Below, one piece after another: positions 41,451-57,703 of a DNA stretch of 64,000 nt. The notes beneath the pieces were generated by a model. That model was not told the origin of the DNA, did not search any database, and saw only the letters and a list, made by a program, of their open reading frames with translations. Every line of letters begins with the position of its first letter. Position 1 is the first letter of the stretch. Origin of the DNA: an uncultured Clostridiaceae bacterium (GTDB taxonomy: Bacteria > Bacillota > Clostridia > TANB77 > CAG-508); contig CATLFA010000006.1 of NCBI GenBank assembly GCA_949927585.1, positions 3,121 through 67,120 of the forward strand, written 5' to 3'. The position numbers were made by a program, and so were the translations under genes.

Positions 41451-41912
41451 CTAATCAAATACAAGAAAAGAAGTACCTGCGCTAGAATAACTTTCTATAA
41501 TATGTCTAGAATTAATTTTAAGTTTAAAATCGAAATATGCGTATTTACCTTTATAACCAACCCAACCCTTGCCTAAATAACGAAGAGTAGCATAAACTTT
41601 ATTTTTCTGATTAATATAAGCTTCACTATTGCCTTCGATAAAATAAAGTAATTCAAGAAGAAGTTTATCAGACATACGTTTTCCTACAATATGAAAGTCT
41701 TCTAGTATTTGTATTAAATCTTGTTCGTTCTGAGGAAATGCTTTAGATACAACAAGTTTATTATCAATAATTTCTTTAACAACAAAATGATTAACGTGAC
41801 AATCATTAATTAGACCAAGTTGTTGAGCTTCTTTTAGACTTACATTTAAAGTATATGAAGAAATATGACCATTTCCATTTTTTTTAGCAATTAAACTGTT
41901 TTGTTTTTTCAT
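41451..41912 (-). CDS. reverse-oriented phage accessory protein (unknown)
   Basis: 153-aa ORF opposite to flanking genes; own hairpin at 41422-41443; palindromic operators upstream. Confidence 0.65.
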   Translation of the reverse strand: MKKQNSLIAKKNGNGHISSYTLNVSLKEAQQLGLINDCHVNHFVVKEIIDNKLVVSKAFPQNEQDLIQILEDFHIVGKRMSDKLLLELLYFIEGNSEAYINQKNKVYATLRYLGKGWVGYKGKYAYFDFKLKINSRHIIESYSSAGTSFLVFD

Positions 41913-43761: not shown

Positions 43762-44160
43762 ATGAATAAACAATTGTTAATCCAATACAATGATTTAATA
43801 AAAGAAAAAAAGAAACTAGAAAAGAGAATAGAAAAATTAGAAAAGCAAAGCTCAATGGTATCAGACGTAGTTCAAAATGGATATAAGAGGCATGCAGTCA
43901 TATTCGGATATGATTTAAGTAGAAATAATAAATTGAACCAATTAAAACAAACATTAGTAGAAAGAGACGCAATGATAATAATGCAACAAGTTGAAATAGA
44001 AAACTATATAAACGCAATTGAGCAAAGTGATATAAGACAAATATTTGGACATAGATACATAGATAACATGAACTGGTATCAAATACAAACTATAATGGGA
44101 TATAATCATGAGGATACAGCAAGAAAAAAACATGATAAATTTATTGAAAAAAATTTATAA
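43762..44160 (+). CDS. sigma-70 region-4-like late transcription activator (DUF1492/RinA/ArpU-like)
   Basis: C-terminal IRQIFGHRYIDNMNWYQIQTIMGYNHEDTARKKHDKFIEK; position just before the packaging module. Confidence 0.55.
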   Translation: MNKQLLIQYNDLIKEKKKLEKRIEKLEKQSSMVSDVVQNGYKRHAVIFGYDLSRNNKLNQLKQTLVERDAMIIMQQVEIENYINAIEQSDIRQIFGHRYIDNMNWYQIQTIMGYNHEDTARKKHDKFIEKNL

Positions 44161-46380: not shown

Positions 46381-46764
46381 ATGCCAGAAATTGGGGATAT
46401 ATGGGTTGCAACAATTCCAAAAATAGAAACAAAAAATAATAGAATAATAAGTGTAAAATTAGAAAGAAGACCGTGTTTAATCATAGATGATGGACACGGT
46501 TTTATTATAGAAAAAAATAATGATTATTTAGGTATGAAAATAACTACTAAAGATAAGAAAAATAAAAAAGAAATAACAAACTGGTATGACGTAGGACTAA
46601 GGCAGAAGTCATTTGTTCGTATAGAAATGCCAATAAAAATAGAAACAAATCAATTAGTAAAGAAAATAGGTAAGCTAAGCAAATGTGATACTTATGTTTA
46701 TATAAATGAATTAATGAGTTTTATAAATAAGGATATAAAAAGTAAGTTTGGTGATGCTATATGA
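46381..46764 (+). CDS. PemK/MazF-fold toxin-like protein
   Basis: GDIWVATIP..ERRPCLII..MKITTK..SFVRIEMPIKIETNQLVKKIGKL follows the MazF/PemK motif order. Confidence 0.55.
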   Translation: MPEIGDIWVATIPKIETKNNRIISVKLERRPCLIIDDGHGFIIEKNNDYLGMKITTKDKKNKKEITNWYDVGLRQKSFVRIEMPIKIETNQLVKKIGKLSKCDTYVYINELMSFINKDIKSKFGDAI

Positions 46765-47042: not shown

Positions 47043-47451
47043 AGTAAAAGAAAATAACTATAATAATTTAACATTAAAACAACAAAAATTTATAGACTTT
47101 TATATAGAAAAAGGAAATGCTACAGAAGCAGCAGAATTAGCAGGATATAAAGGTAAAAATCTTAACAGAATAGCTTCAGAGAACTTGTCAAAACTAGACA
47201 GTTACATAAAAGTTAGATTAAAACAATTAGAAGATAAAAGAATAGCAACAGCAGATGAAGTATTAAAATATTTTACTTCTGTTATGCGAGGACAAATAAA
47301 AGATAGTTTTGGAATAGATGCTTCACTAAGAGATAGAAATGATGCTGCAAAGAGTTTAGCACAAAGGTTTGGAATAAATGCACCAGATAAAGAAAACAAA
47401 ACAGATATGGAATTAAGAATAAAAGTAGACTACGGTGATGATGAAGAATGA
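47023..47451 (+). CDS. terminase small subunit
   Basis: LTLKQQKFIDFYIEKGNATEAAELAGY (Terminase_2-like HTH); start GTG 47023 or ATG 47032. Confidence 0.8.
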   Translation: MRQMEDEVKENNYNNLTLKQQKFIDFYIEKGNATEAAELAGYKGKNLNRIASENLSKLDSYIKVRLKQLEDKRIATADEVLKYFTSVMRGQIKDSFGIDASLRDRNDAAKSLAQRFGINAPDKENKTDMELRIKVDYGDDEE

Positions 47452-48671
47452 ATATAATAGTACAAAGCAATAAAGTGTTTAAACCAGTTCATCAATCAAA
47501 ATTAAGATATATAATTATGAAAGGCTCTGCAGGAAGTGGAAAGTCAGTAGATACAGCACAACAATATATATTAAGATTAATGAATGATAAGGGGAGAAAT
47601 TTATTATGTTTAAGAAAGTCAGAAGTTACCAATAGAGATTCTACTTTTGCAGAATTAATAAGTGCTGTAAACAGAATAGGTGTGGCGAACTACTGGAAAG
47701 CTACTTTAAATCCATTAAGCCTTAAATGTATAAATGGCAATAAAATTATATTTCGAGGCATGAATGATGAAAGACAAAGAGAAAAATTAAAATCTATTAC
47801 TTTCGAAAATGGAAAATTAACAGATGTATGGTTTGAAGAATTAACAGAATTTACACAAAATGACTTTGAAATAATAGACGACCGTTTGAGAGGTGAACTT
47901 CCAGATGGTTTGTTTTATCAAATAAAGGGGACTTTTAACCCAGTTAATGCACAGCATTGGGTAAAAAAAGTCTTTTTTGATATATCAGACCCGAACGTAT
48001 TAACACATCATAGCACATATTTAGACAATAGATTTGTTGATGAAGCATATAAACAACGTATGATGAGAAGAAAATTAATTGATCCAGAAGGTTACCGAAT
48101 ATATGGAGAAGGAGAATGGGGAGAAATTGGAGGACTTATTCTTCATAATTGGGAAGTAAAAGAAATATCACAAGAATTACAATACTATGACAGTATATCA
48201 ATAGGACAAGACTTTGGATTTAATCACGCAAATGCAATTTTATTATTAGGATTTAAAGATGGAAATATTTACATATTAAAAGAAATATATGTTTATGAAA
48301 AGGATACATCTGAAATTATACCTATAGCAAATAATCTAGAAATACCAAAGAATAAAAAAATGTATTGCGATAGTGCAGAGCCTGACCGAATCAATATGTG
48401 GAGAAAAGAAAAATATAAAGCAGAAGCTGTAGTAAAAGAAAAAGGTTGCGTTAATTCTCAAATAGATTGGCTAAAACAAAGGAAAATATATGTACACCCA
48501 AGTTGCATATGGACAATTAAAGAATTACAGCAATGGAAATGGCAAAAAGATGAAAAAACCAATACATATTTAGATACACCAGTAGAAATATTTGATGATG
48601 CAATGGCAGCATTAAGATATGGCATAGAAGGACAAAGAAAAGGACTATCTGGTTTATCAATATTAAAATAA
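47448..48671 (+). CDS. terminase large subunit
   Basis: Walker A GSAGSGKS; ATGA overlap with terS; nuclease-domain acidic residues. Confidence 0.9.
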   Translation: MNIIVQSNKVFKPVHQSKLRYIIMKGSAGSGKSVDTAQQYILRLMNDKGRNLLCLRKSEVTNRDSTFAELISAVNRIGVANYWKATLNPLSLKCINGNKIIFRGMNDERQREKLKSITFENGKLTDVWFEELTEFTQNDFEIIDDRLRGELPDGLFYQIKGTFNPVNAQHWVKKVFFDISDPNVLTHHSTYLDNRFVDEAYKQRMMRRKLIDPEGYRIYGEGEWGEIGGLILHNWEVKEISQELQYYDSISIGQDFGFNHANAILLLGFKDGNIYILKEIYVYEKDTSEIIPIANNLEIPKNKKMYCDSAEPDRINMWRKEKYKAEAVVKEKGCVNSQIDWLKQRKIYVHPSCIWTIKELQQWKWQKDEKTNTYLDTPVEIFDDAMAALRYGIEGQRKGLSGLSILK

Positions 48672-51934: not shown

Positions 51935-51960
51935 AAGAGCTAGACGTAGCTCTTATTTTT
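51935..51960 (+). terminator. hairpin + T-run
   Basis: aagagcta..tagctctt stem, then atttttg. Confidence 0.65.
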
Positions 51961-52058: not shown

Positions 52059-52679
52059 ATGGAGTTTTTAGAAGAAATTTTAGGAACAGACTTGTATAAT
52101 CAAGTCAAAGGAAAAGTAAGTTCTTATAACGAGAAAGTCGATAAGGACAAAAAAGTAAGTATTGTTAATGTAAATAATGGAGAGTTTGTTGCGAAACCAA
52201 AATATGACCAATTAGAAACAGATTTAAGCAATACTAAAACATCATTAGAAACAGCGAATAATACTATTAAAGACTTGAAAAAGTCTAATGGAGATAATGC
52301 AGATTTACAAAACAAGATAGCAAATTATGAAACTGAAAAAGCTAATCTTGAAAAAGCACATAAAGAGACAACTGAAAAGTTGATAAAAGAAAGTGCAATA
52401 AAAGATGCATTATACAATGAAAAAGCAAAACATCCAGAATTATTACTTGGAAAGTTCGATTTATCTAAAATATTGTTAGATGAAAAAGGCGAAAGAGTAG
52501 TATCTGGAATAGAAGAACAAATAAAATCTAATAAGGAAACTTACAAAGATTTATTTGGAGGGGTTGAACAGCAAAATCAACCATACCATTACACTCCAGC
52601 AAGTGGTAATCAAAATCAAAATACTGGAGCAACAGATTTTGTTGGAATAATTAAAGAAAATCAATCAAGAAAAATTTAA
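52059..52679 (+). CDS. scaffolding protein
   Basis: coiled-coil 206 aa directly upstream of the capsid gene. Confidence 0.7.
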   Translation: MEFLEEILGTDLYNQVKGKVSSYNEKVDKDKKVSIVNVNNGEFVAKPKYDQLETDLSNTKTSLETANNTIKDLKKSNGDNADLQNKIANYETEKANLEKAHKETTEKLIKESAIKDALYNEKAKHPELLLGKFDLSKILLDEKGERVVSGIEEQIKSNKETYKDLFGGVEQQNQPYHYTPASGNQNQNTGATDFVGIIKENQSRKI

Positions 52680-52730
52680 GGCGCTTAAGACGTCTTTTTA
52701 TTTTACCCAAAGAAGAAGGAGGAATGTAAA

Positions 52731-55301: not shown

Positions 55302-55871
55302 ATGCCAAGAAAATATTTAAAAGGCTTTAGTGGATTAACAATATTTCCAATAACAGAAAATACTTTAGAAAAATATATAATAGGAGAAGGAACAAAAATA
55401 CCATCTGCTCAAAAGTTATCAAAAGAAATAGATAGTTCAGAAGAAAATATTTATGCAGATGATGAAGTGTGGGATATTGACAAAACAGTAAACGGAGAGA
55501 AATTTACATTAACATTAAAAGAATTAGATAATAAATTAAGAGCAATGTTTGAAGGTGGAAATTATGACGAAACAACAAAAGAATATGACTTTACAACTAT
55601 TGATAATGCACCAGAATTTGCTTGTACATATCGTGGACTTTTAGCTGATGGAACTTATAGAATGTTTAGACAATATAGATGTAAAGTAACTAAAGTTAAA
55701 ATGGATTTAGAAACAAAAGGAAATGGAAATAATGGGGCAGTAGAAATTGAAGGAATGTTTATGCCAAGAGCATATGATAATAAACTATTTACAATTAAAG
55801 ACACAGAAGCAGGGAATGCCGATTTAACATGGCTAGATACTATCCCAACTGTACCAACAGCAGGAGAGTAG
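55302..55871 (+). CDS. major tail protein
   Basis: 189 aa, AGGAGG RBS, directly upstream of the chaperone pair. Confidence 0.75.
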   Translation: MPRKYLKGFSGLTIFPITENTLEKYIIGEGTKIPSAQKLSKEIDSSEENIYADDEVWDIDKTVNGEKFTLTLKELDNKLRAMFEGGNYDETTKEYDFTTIDNAPEFACTYRGLLADGTYRMFRQYRCKVTKVKMDLETKGNGNNGAVEIEGMFMPRAYDNKLFTIKDTEAGNADLTWLDTIPTVPTAGE

Positions 55872-55908: not shown

Positions 55909-56358
55909 ATGACAACAAAAACTAGCGAAAGTATAAGCTTAAATAAAGCTAAAAAAATACATGGTGTAGAGATTAAAAGGATGCCTTGTGGCAAGTATTT
56001 TGAAGCTCTACAAACTTTAAAGGATTTGCCAGAAGACTTCATAAAAGAGTTATCTGACAATAAGCAAGAATTTAAATTATCAGAAATGTTTACAATAGAA
56101 AATATAATGAATTTAGTAACAAAACTACTAATTATATTACCAGACTTTACATTTAGATTTTTATCTGTGTTAATGGACGTAGATGAAGATTTATTAAGAA
56201 ATGAACTTACACCAAAACAAGTGCTAGATATAATACAAGAATTTTGGAAGATGAATGAATTAGAAAGTTTTTTCGTACAAATGAAGCCAATTTTAATGAA
56301 GATTACAACCCTAATTGGCTTCAAAGAACAATTGCCATCTGTGTTAAAATCGGAATAA
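55909..56358 (+). CDS. tail assembly chaperone (G-like)
   Basis: position between major tail and tape measure; contains a slippery heptamer. Confidence 0.75.
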   Translation: MTTKTSESISLNKAKKIHGVEIKRMPCGKYFEALQTLKDLPEDFIKELSDNKQEFKLSEMFTIENIMNLVTKLLIILPDFTFRFLSVLMDVDEDLLRNELTPKQVLDIIQEFWKMNELESFFVQMKPILMKITTLIGFKEQLPSVLKSE

Positions 56359-56480
56359 GTAAAAAAGAATTTTTGGAAGATTATTATATAGATGAAATAC
56401 CAATAATAATGCAAGAGTATGCAGAATTAAATAAAACAACTTCCTCAAACGAAGAGGAAGTTAGTGCTGATGATTTTTAA
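55909..56480 (+). CDS. GT-like -1 frameshift product of the tail chaperone
   Basis: -1 frame open from about 56256 to TAA 56478-56480, encoding ..GISKKEFLEDYYIDEIPIIMQEYAEL.. Confidence 0.6.
56268..56274 (+). other. -1 slippery heptamer T TTT TTC
   Basis: agt ttt ttc in 0 frame; X XXY YYZ pattern inside the overlap window. Confidence 0.6.
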
Positions 56481-56923
56481 GTATTATCATTTGCTGTAGA
56501 ACCTATACTTACAGCAATTATTTGGTCAACAAAGATATCTACAAAAGGCATTGTAATTTCTCCTCTTAGTCCAGTAGGAGTTATAGTTACATCTTCAAGA
56601 GTAATGGTTATTCCATTATCAAAAGGCTGATTTTGATCTGACTCAGAATAAGTCTTTTCTGCATAATCTAGATATGTAAGACGAATCAAAGAAGCATAAT
56701 CTTTTTTTTCTATGTATTCTTCAACCTTTTGCTTATTAGATAGATTTCCCATAATTTCGTCAGAATCAAATGCTTTTAGTTTTCCACGATACATTCCATT
56801 AGCAGTAAAGATAATTAACTCGTTAGTATCATCATCAAAGCTTTCATTAGAAAATTTTGAAAAACAAGCATAAGATTGTACCTTTAATAGTTTATTTGAA
56901 ATAACTACAGGAGTTTTTGACAT
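56477..56923 (-). CDS. reverse-oriented moron protein (unknown, acidic, soluble)
   Basis: GAGG RBS 8 nt before ATG 56923; convergent with the late operon. Confidence 0.65.
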   Translation of the reverse strand: MSKTPVVISNKLLKVQSYACFSKFSNESFDDDTNELIIFTANGMYRGKLKAFDSDEIMGNLSNKQKVEEYIEKKDYASLIRLTYLDYAEKTYSESDQNQPFDNGITITLEDVTITPTGLRGEITMPFVDIFVDQIIAVSIGSTANDNT

Positions 56924-57105
56924 ATTATTCACCTCACTTTCTATAACTTATGAATTTTTATCATATGTATAAATAAATTATAGCAAGTACAAATTGAAAA
57001 ATATGTCAAATATTGTCAATAAATACAAAAATTTTGTAATAATCGCAGTTTTCGACAGACTTTGACATTTGTTTTATGCTATCCTCCTATTAGGAGGGGA
57101 TAAAT

Positions 57106-57648
57106 ATGTGGTTTTTCATTTTGTTTTTTATTGCAATTATTTCATATTTAATATGGGGGATTAATTACAATGTGAAAGAAAGTCAAAAAAAGAAAGAAGA
57201 AAACAATAGTATTAATGAAAAAGGAAAAGAATACAATGCAGAGTATTCTGCTAAAATAAAACATATATGTGGATTACCATTATCAGAAAATTCAGAATGT
57301 ATAATACATCTATGTAATAACCAAATTATAATTGAAAGTATAGGAAGTATTTTTAAACTACAAAGAAGTAGAATATTAGATATGAATATAAAAACATCTA
57401 AAGAAGTTCAAAACTCTATAAGTAGAGCAGTTGGTGGAGCAATATTATTAGGACCAATAGGAGCATTTATAGGTGGAAGTTCTACAGAATTTCATAGATT
57501 TTTTATAATTATATATAAAAACAAAGAAAATAAGGAACAATATATAAGTTTTGATATGAAAGAAGATATAAATGCATTGAAAGGCATATATAATTATATA
57601 CAAGAATTTAAAAACAATATTACACAAAAAGGAGAAATAGAGTTATAA
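57106..57648 (+). CDS. membrane-anchored moron protein with Gly-zipper segment
   Basis: AGGAGG RBS; N-terminal TM FFILFFIAIISYLIW; GGAILLGPIGAFIGG. Confidence 0.65.
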   Translation: MWFFILFFIAIISYLIWGINYNVKESQKKKEENNSINEKGKEYNAEYSAKIKHICGLPLSENSECIIHLCNNQIIIESIGSIFKLQRSRILDMNIKTSKEVQNSISRAVGGAILLGPIGAFIGGSSTEFHRFFIIIYKNKENKEQYISFDMKEDINALKGIYNYIQEFKNNITQKGEIEL

Positions 57649-57654
57649 TAAATA

Positions 57655-57685
57655 AAAACGCTTGCTTTTGCAAGTGTTTTTATTA
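57655..57685 (+). terminator. hairpin + T-run just upstream of the tape measure gene
   Basis: aaacgcttgc tttt gcaagtgttttt. Confidence 0.65.
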
Positions 57686-57703
57686 TGCAAAGGAAGTGAA
57701 AAA

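Follow-up and report, generated by a model that had tools for sequence, protein, structure and literature searches.

Results

A 1.2-kb accessory region between the tail chaperone and tape-measure genes

We analysed a stretch of 64,000 nucleotides, called here the window, from an uncultured Clostridiaceae bacterium (GCA_949927585.1, contig CATLFA010000006.1); all positions are window positions. Host genes run up to the RNase J gene (31111-32994), and beyond it lies an integrated temperate siphovirus. In the tail operon of this prophage, 1,223 nt separate the stop codon of the tail assembly chaperone GT (56480) from the ATG of the tape-measure gene (57704). They hold a reverse gene for an acidic protein of 148 residues (aa) and a forward gene for a protein of 180 aa, with a hairpin and T-run between the latter and the tape measure (Table 1). 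A previous reading of the same DNA, made from the sequence alone, had described a two-gene moron island with its own terminator between G/GT and the tape measure, and each element of that layout was recovered in place. It had also taken the two flanking genes to be normally adjacent, a view that misses a precedent: HK97 gene 15, the first moron described, occupies exactly this junction between the tail chaperone and tape-measure genes (PMC3594210).

We consider, with a probability of about 0.85, that the 1.2 kb represents two independent, self-contained accessory cassettes (morons) lodged in a hypervariable slot between GT and the tape measure of a temperate siphovirus. Cassette 1 (reverse, 56437-56985) would comprise a promoter, the 148-aa gene and a terminator placed antisense in the last codons of T. 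Cassette 2 (forward, ~57050-57690) would begin with a platform of promoter and ribosome-binding site (RBS) that other cargo also uses, continue with the 180-aa gene and close with a strong terminator directly before the tape-measure RBS.

Table 1. Features of the two cassettes, of the adjoining tail genes and of the rest of the prophage. HTH, helix-turn-helix; dG, folding free energy; pI, isoelectric point.
Feature	Position	Strand	Remarks
Reverse accessory gene, 148 aa, acidic	56477-56923	minus	pI 4.43; phrog_3773
Intrinsic terminator of the 148-aa gene	56463-56437	minus	10-bp stem + T-run; dG -13.7, z -4.0
AT-rich divergent control region, 182 nt	56924-57105		GC ~24-26%
Candidate extended -10 for the 148-aa gene, TGCTATAAT	56985-56977	minus	sequence match
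Candidate promoter for the 180-aa gene, TCGACA-17-TATGCT	57052-57080	plus	sequence match
CCTCC	57083-57087		faces the RBS GGAGG (57093-57097) of the 180-aa gene across a 5-nt loop
Forward accessory gene, 180 aa	57106-57648	plus	phrog_17658, 20110 and 888 (unknown function)
Intrinsic terminator of the 180-aa cassette, bidirectional in form	57651-57690	plus	hairpin 57651-57684, then UUAUUAU
Major tail protein	55302-55871		phrog_88, E 6e-26
Tail assembly chaperone G, 149 aa	55909-56358	plus	between major tail protein and tape measure
Slippery heptamer T TTT TTC	56268-56274	plus	-1 frameshift of G into T
T extension of GT	to stop 56478-56480	plus	-1 frame open 56259-56480, overlaps the end of G
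Tape measure, 1,101 aa	57704-61009	plus	phrog_1533, E 3.5e-54; RBS GGAAGTG 57692-57698
Dit	61018-61908		after the tape measure
Integrase	33123-34424	minus	
HTH repressor	35000-35332	minus	
Operator-like repeats (three) matching TTCAGARANAYTGAA	35399-35485		between the repressor gene and a divergent Cro-like gene
DUF1492-type late regulator candidate	43762-44160		
Large terminase	47448-48671		followed by portal, MuF, scaffold protein and capsid protein

The junction is a hypervariable cargo slot

So as not to favour any cargo, viral contigs were searched with the G protein alone, which yielded 32 loci (designated by L numbers where they need to be told apart) with G proteins 57-77% identical. 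The end of T and the start of the tape measure were located by tblastn, and open reading frames (ORFs) were read in 20 distinct gaps. The borders of the slot are conserved, the T peptide being kept at 60-80% identity in every relative and the tape measure being 44-69% identical over its full length to those of the relatives. The distance from the T stop to the tape-measure start varies across the 32 contigs from 37 nt, at the empty site of L068, up to 4,404 nt, and occupied slots hold 0.5-4.4 kb among the 20 distinct relatives.

The 180-aa gene is present in 8 of the 32 contigs. Another 7 carry P0056, a membrane protein that also has 180 residues and shows no similarity to that of the window, and further occupants are membrane proteins of 136/146, 220, 225, 250/258 and 298/335 aa. 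Another frequent occupant is a zinc-ribbon protein with two membrane helices, which at L018:5500-6432 and L075:546-1413 (minus) lies upstream of a 180-aa homologue and is translationally coupled to it by a TAATG overlap. All distinct occupied slots (19/19) encode at least one forward membrane protein, mostly with a single N-terminal membrane anchor, and these proteins belong to at least eight unrelated families. None of ten other slot cargo proteins matched PADLOC-DB v2 (E up to 0.01) or gave a Pfam or NCBIfam family above threshold.

The reverse gene beside T, where there is one, changes too: it may be the 148-aa gene, DUF6173, DUF2513, a helix-turn-helix (HTH) repressor or a small protein without Pfam match that was judged by eye to be ribbon-helix-helix-like. 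An HTH and antirepressor module, or a SocA/Panacea antitoxin-like gene, is found in some slots in addition. The latter (E 7e-15) follows a 109-aa ORF at L065:9142-9954, possibly as a toxin-antitoxin pair. At L002:6575-8906 and L067:8196-10769 a second regulatory module, composed of a reverse HTH repressor-like and a forward Cro-like HTH gene, separates the 180-aa gene from the tape measure, with an AntA/ANT antirepressor in addition in L002 and a protein that looks ParB-like by eye in L067.

One pair of contigs, L040 and L041, catches the turnover of cargo almost in the act. Upstream of the cargo their identity is 98.8% (2.6 kb) and downstream of it 93% (2.4 kb), and the N-termini of their tape measures are 97% identical; the cargo is a 298-aa membrane protein in one and the 180-aa gene in the other. 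Similarity is lost at the start codon of the cargo and regained at the 3' arm of the terminator, so that the unit exchanged between these two phages consists of the coding sequence together with the terminator stem. This exchange is recent, and the junction as a whole is a hypervariable cargo slot. The earlier proposal of accessory cargo with its own terminator inside a late tail operon is strengthened by these comparisons, since among related phages that share this tail module the site is either empty or filled by genes of quite another kind.

Each gene has its own terminator

The hairpin behind the 180-aa gene has a 15-bp stem (dG -18.5 kcal/mol, z -4.55; 0 of 200 shuffles fold as well) and ends 18-19 nt before the tape-measure ATG, in agreement with the hairpin and T-run noticed previously. 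A scan for terminators between 51 and 62 kb found 9 sites where 2.8 were expected. Such a structure lies directly 3' of the gene in 19/19 loci of the 180-aa family (6/6 of siphovirus type and 13/13 distant loci between chaperone and tape measure). It is always a GC-rich hairpin followed by a T-run, with stems that are not homologous, and leaves 20-60 nt before the tape measure; the empty site of L068 has no such hairpin and T-run. As there is no room for a promoter before the tape-measure RBS, late transcription would have to read through the forward terminator, as the sequence-only reading had also reasoned.

The 148-aa gene ends in a terminator of the form AACTTCCTC-N7-GAGGAAGTT plus T-run, antisense inside the last codons of T (peptide TTSSNEEEV). 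It is present in 7/7 loci carrying the gene and in 0/7 relatives that have the same T codons without the gene. As the terminator tracks the presence of the gene, the 148-aa cassette appears to have brought it, or selected it, within the last ~15 codons of T. Both cassette terminators are found only where the respective gene is present.

The two genes travel separately

The 148-aa gene has four different forward partners: the 180-aa gene, solely in the cluster to which the window belongs, P0056 in L010, a 134-aa protein in L073 and, in L075, a 112-aa zinc-ribbon protein, which is followed by a member of the 180-aa family and then by another membrane protein. It also occurs as a solitary gene in early or lysis regions (L001, L008). 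Conversely, the 180-aa gene is found mostly without it, either alone among these two (L013, L015, L016, L041, L061, L067) or beside a reverse DUF6173 gene (L005, L064). Judged by this distribution the two genes are independent cassettes, and the idea of a two-gene unit was abandoned.

Their divergent layout around a shared 182-nt control region would suit one two-gene system, either a defence and counter-defence pair in a non-contiguous operon or a toxin-antitoxin pair. Phage phi80 offers a model for the former in Tai/Ati, where a constitutive immune gene on the opposite strand interrupts the late operon beside a late-expressed antidote (PMC11364771). Because the 148-aa and 180-aa genes do not co-occur, the former being solitary or variably partnered and the latter often on its own, an obligate pair of either kind is ruled out, and a single two-gene system is highly improbable.

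The 180-aa protein is predicted to be a membrane-anchored PH-like domain

The AlphaFold model of the 180-aa protein has a mean confidence (pLDDT) of 84.4, from an alignment of 45 sequences. A long N-terminal helix (residues 2-42) is made up of a membrane segment and, after it, a K/E-rich linker. Seven strands (45-55, 63-70, 73-78, 81-86, 90-97, 131-138 and 144-150) then build a sandwich closed by a C-terminal helix (155-170), and a glycine-zipper helical hairpin (98-122, pLDDT ~62) is inserted between strands 5 and 6. The transmembrane helix and glycine-zipper segment recognised in the sequence-only reading are both there, as a hydrophobic N-terminus and as GGAILLGPIGAFIGG. Structure prediction with Foldseek, which had been suggested as a check, gives a PH-like fold: nearly every one of the top 50 matches in the PDB is a PH or PTB domain, or a protein with such a domain, and 49 of the 50 have a probability of 0.97-1.0. 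The best ones are the Sin1 PH, ICAP1 PTB, Rtt106 and Pob3 PH domains (E 5e-4 to 1e-2, TM-score 0.39-0.66), and the best viral match is an unnamed 180-aa protein. Support for the PH-like fold is good.

Sequence searches gave no name to the family. The protein and 18 relatives had no match above threshold in Pfam or NCBIfam and none of YebO type; bPH_1 to bPH_6 of Pfam were not listed for the 19 members at E up to 0.05. PADLOC-DB v2 gave no match at E up to 1, the family profile met nothing meaningful among PDB sequences, and tblastn with the protein and two distant members found no match in 50,697 GenBank phage records. Two close homologues carry the precomputed Pfam label PF27000.

With bacterial PH-like proteins (bPH, YdbS/YdbT, YokE) and eukaryotic PH/PTB domains the model shares the seven-stranded sandwich and its C-terminal helix cap, and a membrane anchor is found in many bPH proteins too. 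It differs from them in the 25-residue glycine-zipper hairpin, which is specific to the 180-aa family, and in the lack of any Pfam bPH match; the TM-scores are modest.

The invariant core of the family reads GLP...C, KI.D, (V)SS.GGAVGGA.L.G..GA..GG(R.K.K) and a C-terminal [IV][ED]L. Its most conserved part is AVGGAxLxGPxGAxxGG, with 7/15 of the invariant columns in one alignment and 6/10 in another, and five members weakly match the glycine-zipper family C19orf12. Members carry 0, 1 or 2 N-terminal membrane helices, and basic (lysine-rich) residues always follow the last one. Since variants without any helix exist as well, we would place the PH-like domain in the cytoplasm. The 17-residue zipper would then be best read as a re-entrant or in-plane anchor of the inner leaflet.

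Alternatively, the protein could be an abortive-infection effector, in which the PH-like domain senses a phage component and the glycine zippers assemble a pore that depolarises the membrane and kills the lysogen before there are progeny. The strong conservation of the zipper, the C19orf12 matches and the insertion of the hairpin into an otherwise soluble fold all agree with such a pore, and the antitoxin-like gene in the slot of L065 indicates that toxin-type cargo uses this site too. However, the hydrophobic stretch of 17 residues is short for a membrane-spanning hairpin, no abortive-infection model of PADLOC was matched, the locus suggests neither trigger nor antidote, and a role during entry accounts better for the repeated adjacency to the tape measure. 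We therefore regard a pore-forming effector as unlikely.

Control region of the two genes

What had been called a 180-bp AT-rich divergent promoter region is indeed an AT-rich spacer of this size, in which the promoters are candidates at the level of sequence. Upstream of the 180-aa gene, a promoter motif clearer than that of the window, TTGnAn-17-TAnnAT, is kept at -50 in four relatives regardless of what lies further upstream. In L015 (5933-6003), L002, L005 and L016, TTGCAA-17-TAAAAT is found inside an inverted repeat of ~12 bp, CTTGCAATATTT...AAATATTGCAAG (~-20 kcal/mol), which ends right at the RBS of the 180-aa homologues; this repeat could be an operator, or a hairpin formed only in read-through late transcripts. 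In the window, the CCTCC facing the RBS could form a small hairpin that masks it.

A plus-strand platform, from the TTTCGACA boxes through TATTAGGAGGGGATAA, is present in the window and common to relatives with other cargo. TTCGACA/TGTCGAA boxes occur two to three times in slot control regions, beside different cargo (window 57050-57068; L041:7565-7600; L040:7575-7600; intergenic in L075 and L010), and could be binding sites of a regulator. As a regulator site in the window the box was not retained: it occurs once in the island, and in the whole window 5 copies were found against 1.75 expected, a number reached by 5 of 100 shuffles. Control by the prophage repressor was set aside as well, since its three TTCAGARANAYTGAA operator-like repeats do not recur in the island.

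A widespread family in phage contexts

The size of the 180-aa family was estimated with a profile of 19 diverse members. Besides 49 close clusters, it reaches 1,843 representatives at 50% identity clustering, 915 of them with E up to 1e-10, in Clostridia and Bacilli and without curated annotation. For distant members (30-37% identical) we compared the contexts of 27 viral and 50 species-genome loci. In 13/50 genomes, among them Bacillus, Lysinibacillus, Psychrobacillus, Cytobacillus, Clostridium and Lachnotalea, the gene belongs to a PBSX-like contractile tail module, where it separates an XkdN-type chaperone from the tape measure; in 2 more it lies just before the chaperone. It stands between an HTH repressor and the integrase in ~7/50 genomes and after MuF in 1 or 2. 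Every locus examined was a phage or prophage context. At L026:3706-4632 a member is fused to a C-terminal Phage_Mu_F match (E 3e-5), directly before a tape-measure-like gene. On the grounds of its terminators, its conserved promoter and these placements, the family behaves as a transcription unit complete in itself, which has come to lie before tape-measure genes again and again and is used in lysogeny modules too. The position of distant homologues between repressor and integrase fits expression in the lysogen, for which the lack of the operator-like repeats in the island is a further indirect argument.

These placements also bear on the possibility that the protein is not made from a lysogen-expressed moron at all and instead serves a late lytic function tied to the tape measure, its gene being read through from the tail operon. 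It might, for instance, keep the hydrophobic tape measure out of the membrane of the producer cell, or exclude secondary infection during the lytic cycle. Such a role would account for its orientation, which is that of the late operon, and for its place directly before the tape measure in siphovirus-type tails and before the tape measure or chaperone in the PBSX-like genomes; moreover, the tape measure of the window prophage has hydrophobic segments. It would not account for the absence of the gene from close relatives with a 97% identical tape measure, for the empty slot of L068 or for the unrelated membrane proteins that replace it in other relatives. Nor does it explain members located between repressor and integrase or after MuF, far from tape measures, or the terminator that always follows the gene and is sensible for an independent unit. 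A late function is improbable on this balance.

The membrane-anchored PH proteins YdbS/YdbT of Bacillus subtilis are linked to antimicrobial resistance. By analogy, the slot could carry lysogenic-conversion cargo unrelated to phages, for envelope stress tolerance, bacteriocin resistance or membrane homeostasis in the gut host, which would agree with the membrane or envelope proteins encoded in all occupied slots and with the lack of any matching defence model. As the family is confined to phage and prophage contexts in every locus examined and recurs beside the tape-measure gene, we hold this to be decidedly improbable.

The 148-aa protein

The ATG of the 148-aa gene is preceded by the RBS GAGGTG; an alternative GTG start, giving 151 aa, is less likely. 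Only six clusters of this small family were found among 5.8 billion proteins. In the four homologue clusters closest to the window gene, the gene is reversed and directly adjoins the T stop, and homologues are always solitary and on the strand opposite to their neighbours. Of the more distant members, one belongs to the early region of prophages of Streptococcus agalactiae (for example Javan37), and another adjoins a lysis module; among GenBank phage records, the only matches were hypothetical proteins in eight Streptococcus agalactiae phages.

The AlphaFold model is weak (pLDDT 58.6, six sequences). Submitted to Foldseek, this weak model has Sm/LSm proteins as its top 50/50 matches, with weak E values of 0.02-0.13. 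Two blocks are conserved, IIFTANGxYRGKL and FVDIFVDQIIGVS; they recall strands of the Sm1 and Sm2 kind and enclose a helical insert of ~45 residues. An Sm-like barrel with a helical insert is therefore possible, and is given as a lead only. No meaningful match was found for the family profile among PDB sequences, nor for the protein in PADLOC-DB v2 (E up to 1), and no Pfam or NCBIfam family was above threshold.

The surrounding prophage

The integrase, an ImmA-like peptidase and the HTH repressor are grouped at 33.1-35.3 kb, where the three TTCAGARANAYTGAA repeats are probably the immunity operators of the prophage repressor. In the early region, a solitary 153-aa gene on the opposite strand (41451-41912, minus; no Pfam match) has a moron-like layout, and a PemK/MazF-like toxin gene (46381-46764, E 1.7e-5) lies just before the packaging genes. 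The 9-kb tail region had no match among GenBank phage records by megablast. In some relatives, head and tail genes (gp10-like, Dit and parts of the tape measure) are divided between reading frames in tblastn (L010:791-1689 for Dit; L010:7994-8430, L013:3923-4358 and L013:9951-10839). The codon CGG occurs in neither of the two cassette genes, in any frame, so that a recoding dependent on it would leave their frames as they are.

Discussion

The features by which morons are recognised were set out by Juhala et al. 2000 and are summarised in PMC3594210. Two of them are plainly present here: the DNA is extra with respect to related phages, L068 having an empty site of 37 nt and L040/L041 differing only in their cargo, and each of the two genes has its own terminator.

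Other observations weigh against this interpretation. Morons are expected to have a foreign base composition; the 148-aa gene (GC 29.3%) cannot be distinguished from its flanks, and the 180-aa gene, with a GC content of 23.2% against 28-32% in the flanks and the same value at third codon positions (0.12), is hardly foreign. The promoter candidate of the 180-aa gene in the window agrees with the consensus at 9/12 positions only, and matches of this kind are about as common in shuffled sequence (69 found, 58.7 expected). The forward gene is co-oriented with the late operon and may also be expressed late in infection. Other late genes too are separated by terminator-like hairpins, one ahead of the scaffold gene (51935-51954) and one between scaffold and capsid (52678-52696), so that the one before the tape measure is not unique in the operon; these hairpins and the DUF1492-type candidate would fit late transcription that tolerates terminators. 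The absence of PADLOC, Pfam or NCBIfam matches above threshold for both proteins and the ten other cargo proteins, including the PADLOC check on the pair that the sequence-only reading had suggested, lends no support to a defence role. Finally, the notion that the 180-aa gene is matched to one type of tape measure is weakened by the different cargo found beside N-termini that are 97% identical.

We propose the following scheme for the two cassettes. In the lysogen, both genes would be transcribed from their own sigma-A-type promoters, and the terminators would shield the silent tail genes from cassette transcription. Upon induction, late transcription would read through the forward terminator to the tape measure. 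The N-terminus of the 180-aa protein would lie outside the cell, its PH-like domain would face the cytoplasm, and the glycine-zipper hairpin would dip into the inner leaflet. From this position the protein would most probably block the entry of a superinfecting genome at the membrane step mediated by the tape measure, as HK97 gp15 does from the same position in the operon. The 148-aa protein would be a separate prophage-expressed factor. Taken as a whole, two morons working in this manner is the explanation we favour, with somewhat better than even confidence.

The function of the 180-aa protein is deduced from its position, its membrane anchoring and precedent. The closest precedent in layout is HK97 gp15, an inner-membrane superinfection-exclusion protein whose effect depends on the tail of the incoming phage (Cumby et al. 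2012; PMC3594210). Both are small proteins anchored in the cytoplasmic membrane and encoded at the same junction of the tail operon, in DNA that is extra relative to related phages and has a terminator and a promoter of its own, the promoter in the window being a candidate. The likeness is one of layout, not of family membership, as there is no sequence relationship with gp15/YebO. The 180-aa protein is also larger, and its presumed cytoplasmic domain is PH-like and bears a glycine-zipper hairpin. Its host belongs to the Clostridia, of Gram-positive type, and the slot is shared by two cassettes that lie on opposite strands.

A second precedent is given by the Ltp/Sie2009-type proteins of Streptococcus thermophilus and Lactococcus prophages, which are envelope proteins that block DNA injection. 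Some distant members of the 180-aa family share their place between repressor and integrase. No sequence similarity to them was detected in the 180-aa protein. Ltp acts via the tape measure (see also PMC3952083). It differs in being a surface-exposed lipoprotein, whereas a lipobox cysteine is missing from the 180-aa protein, for whose domain a cytoplasmic location is predicted.

Tape-measure proteins are targeted or used by other defences as well, such as Tab and SNIPE (Tab: PMC10884400). Tai/Ati of phi80 and Tab/anti-Tab of JBD26 are late-operon morons expressed constitutively from the prophage, and Tab targets the tape measure (PMC11364771, PMC10884400). The opposite-strand location of the phi80 immune gene recalls that of the 148-aa gene. 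In contrast to the two genes of the window, which are no obligate pair, these systems consist of soluble blockers of tail assembly with a paired counter-defence.

By analogy with these systems, superinfection exclusion or defence is the leading candidate function of the 180-aa protein, to which we would give a little less than even odds. The narrower proposal that the family is a dedicated blocker of phage genome entry, directed at the tape measure from the cytoplasmic face, is more speculative and rather doubtful at present. If true, it would explain why the same self-terminated cassette is repeatedly found before the tape measure in both non-contractile and PBSX-like tails, and the family would stand as the counterpart of HK97 gp15 in Gram-positive hosts, with a fold of another origin.

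Morons at the junction of tail chaperone and tape measure are a textbook feature of lambdoid coliphages. What is new in the present prophage is the assignment of the fold, the extent of a family that is very widespread and entirely unannotated, its recurrence across tail types, always with a terminator, and the antisense terminator inside T, which was missing from the sequence-only reading. To these are added cassette boundaries that can be mapped almost to the base, from start codon to terminator stem. That each occupied slot encodes at least one forward membrane protein, although at least eight unrelated families are involved, suggests that selection maintains a common task at the cell membrane. 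Should the 180-aa protein not block entry, the slot would still be a well-defined example of rapid cassette exchange in an essential operon. If the family does block DNA entry, it would provide prophages of gut and soil Firmicutes with a widely shared form of immunity, for which the homologues in Bacillus and its relatives provide a testable model.

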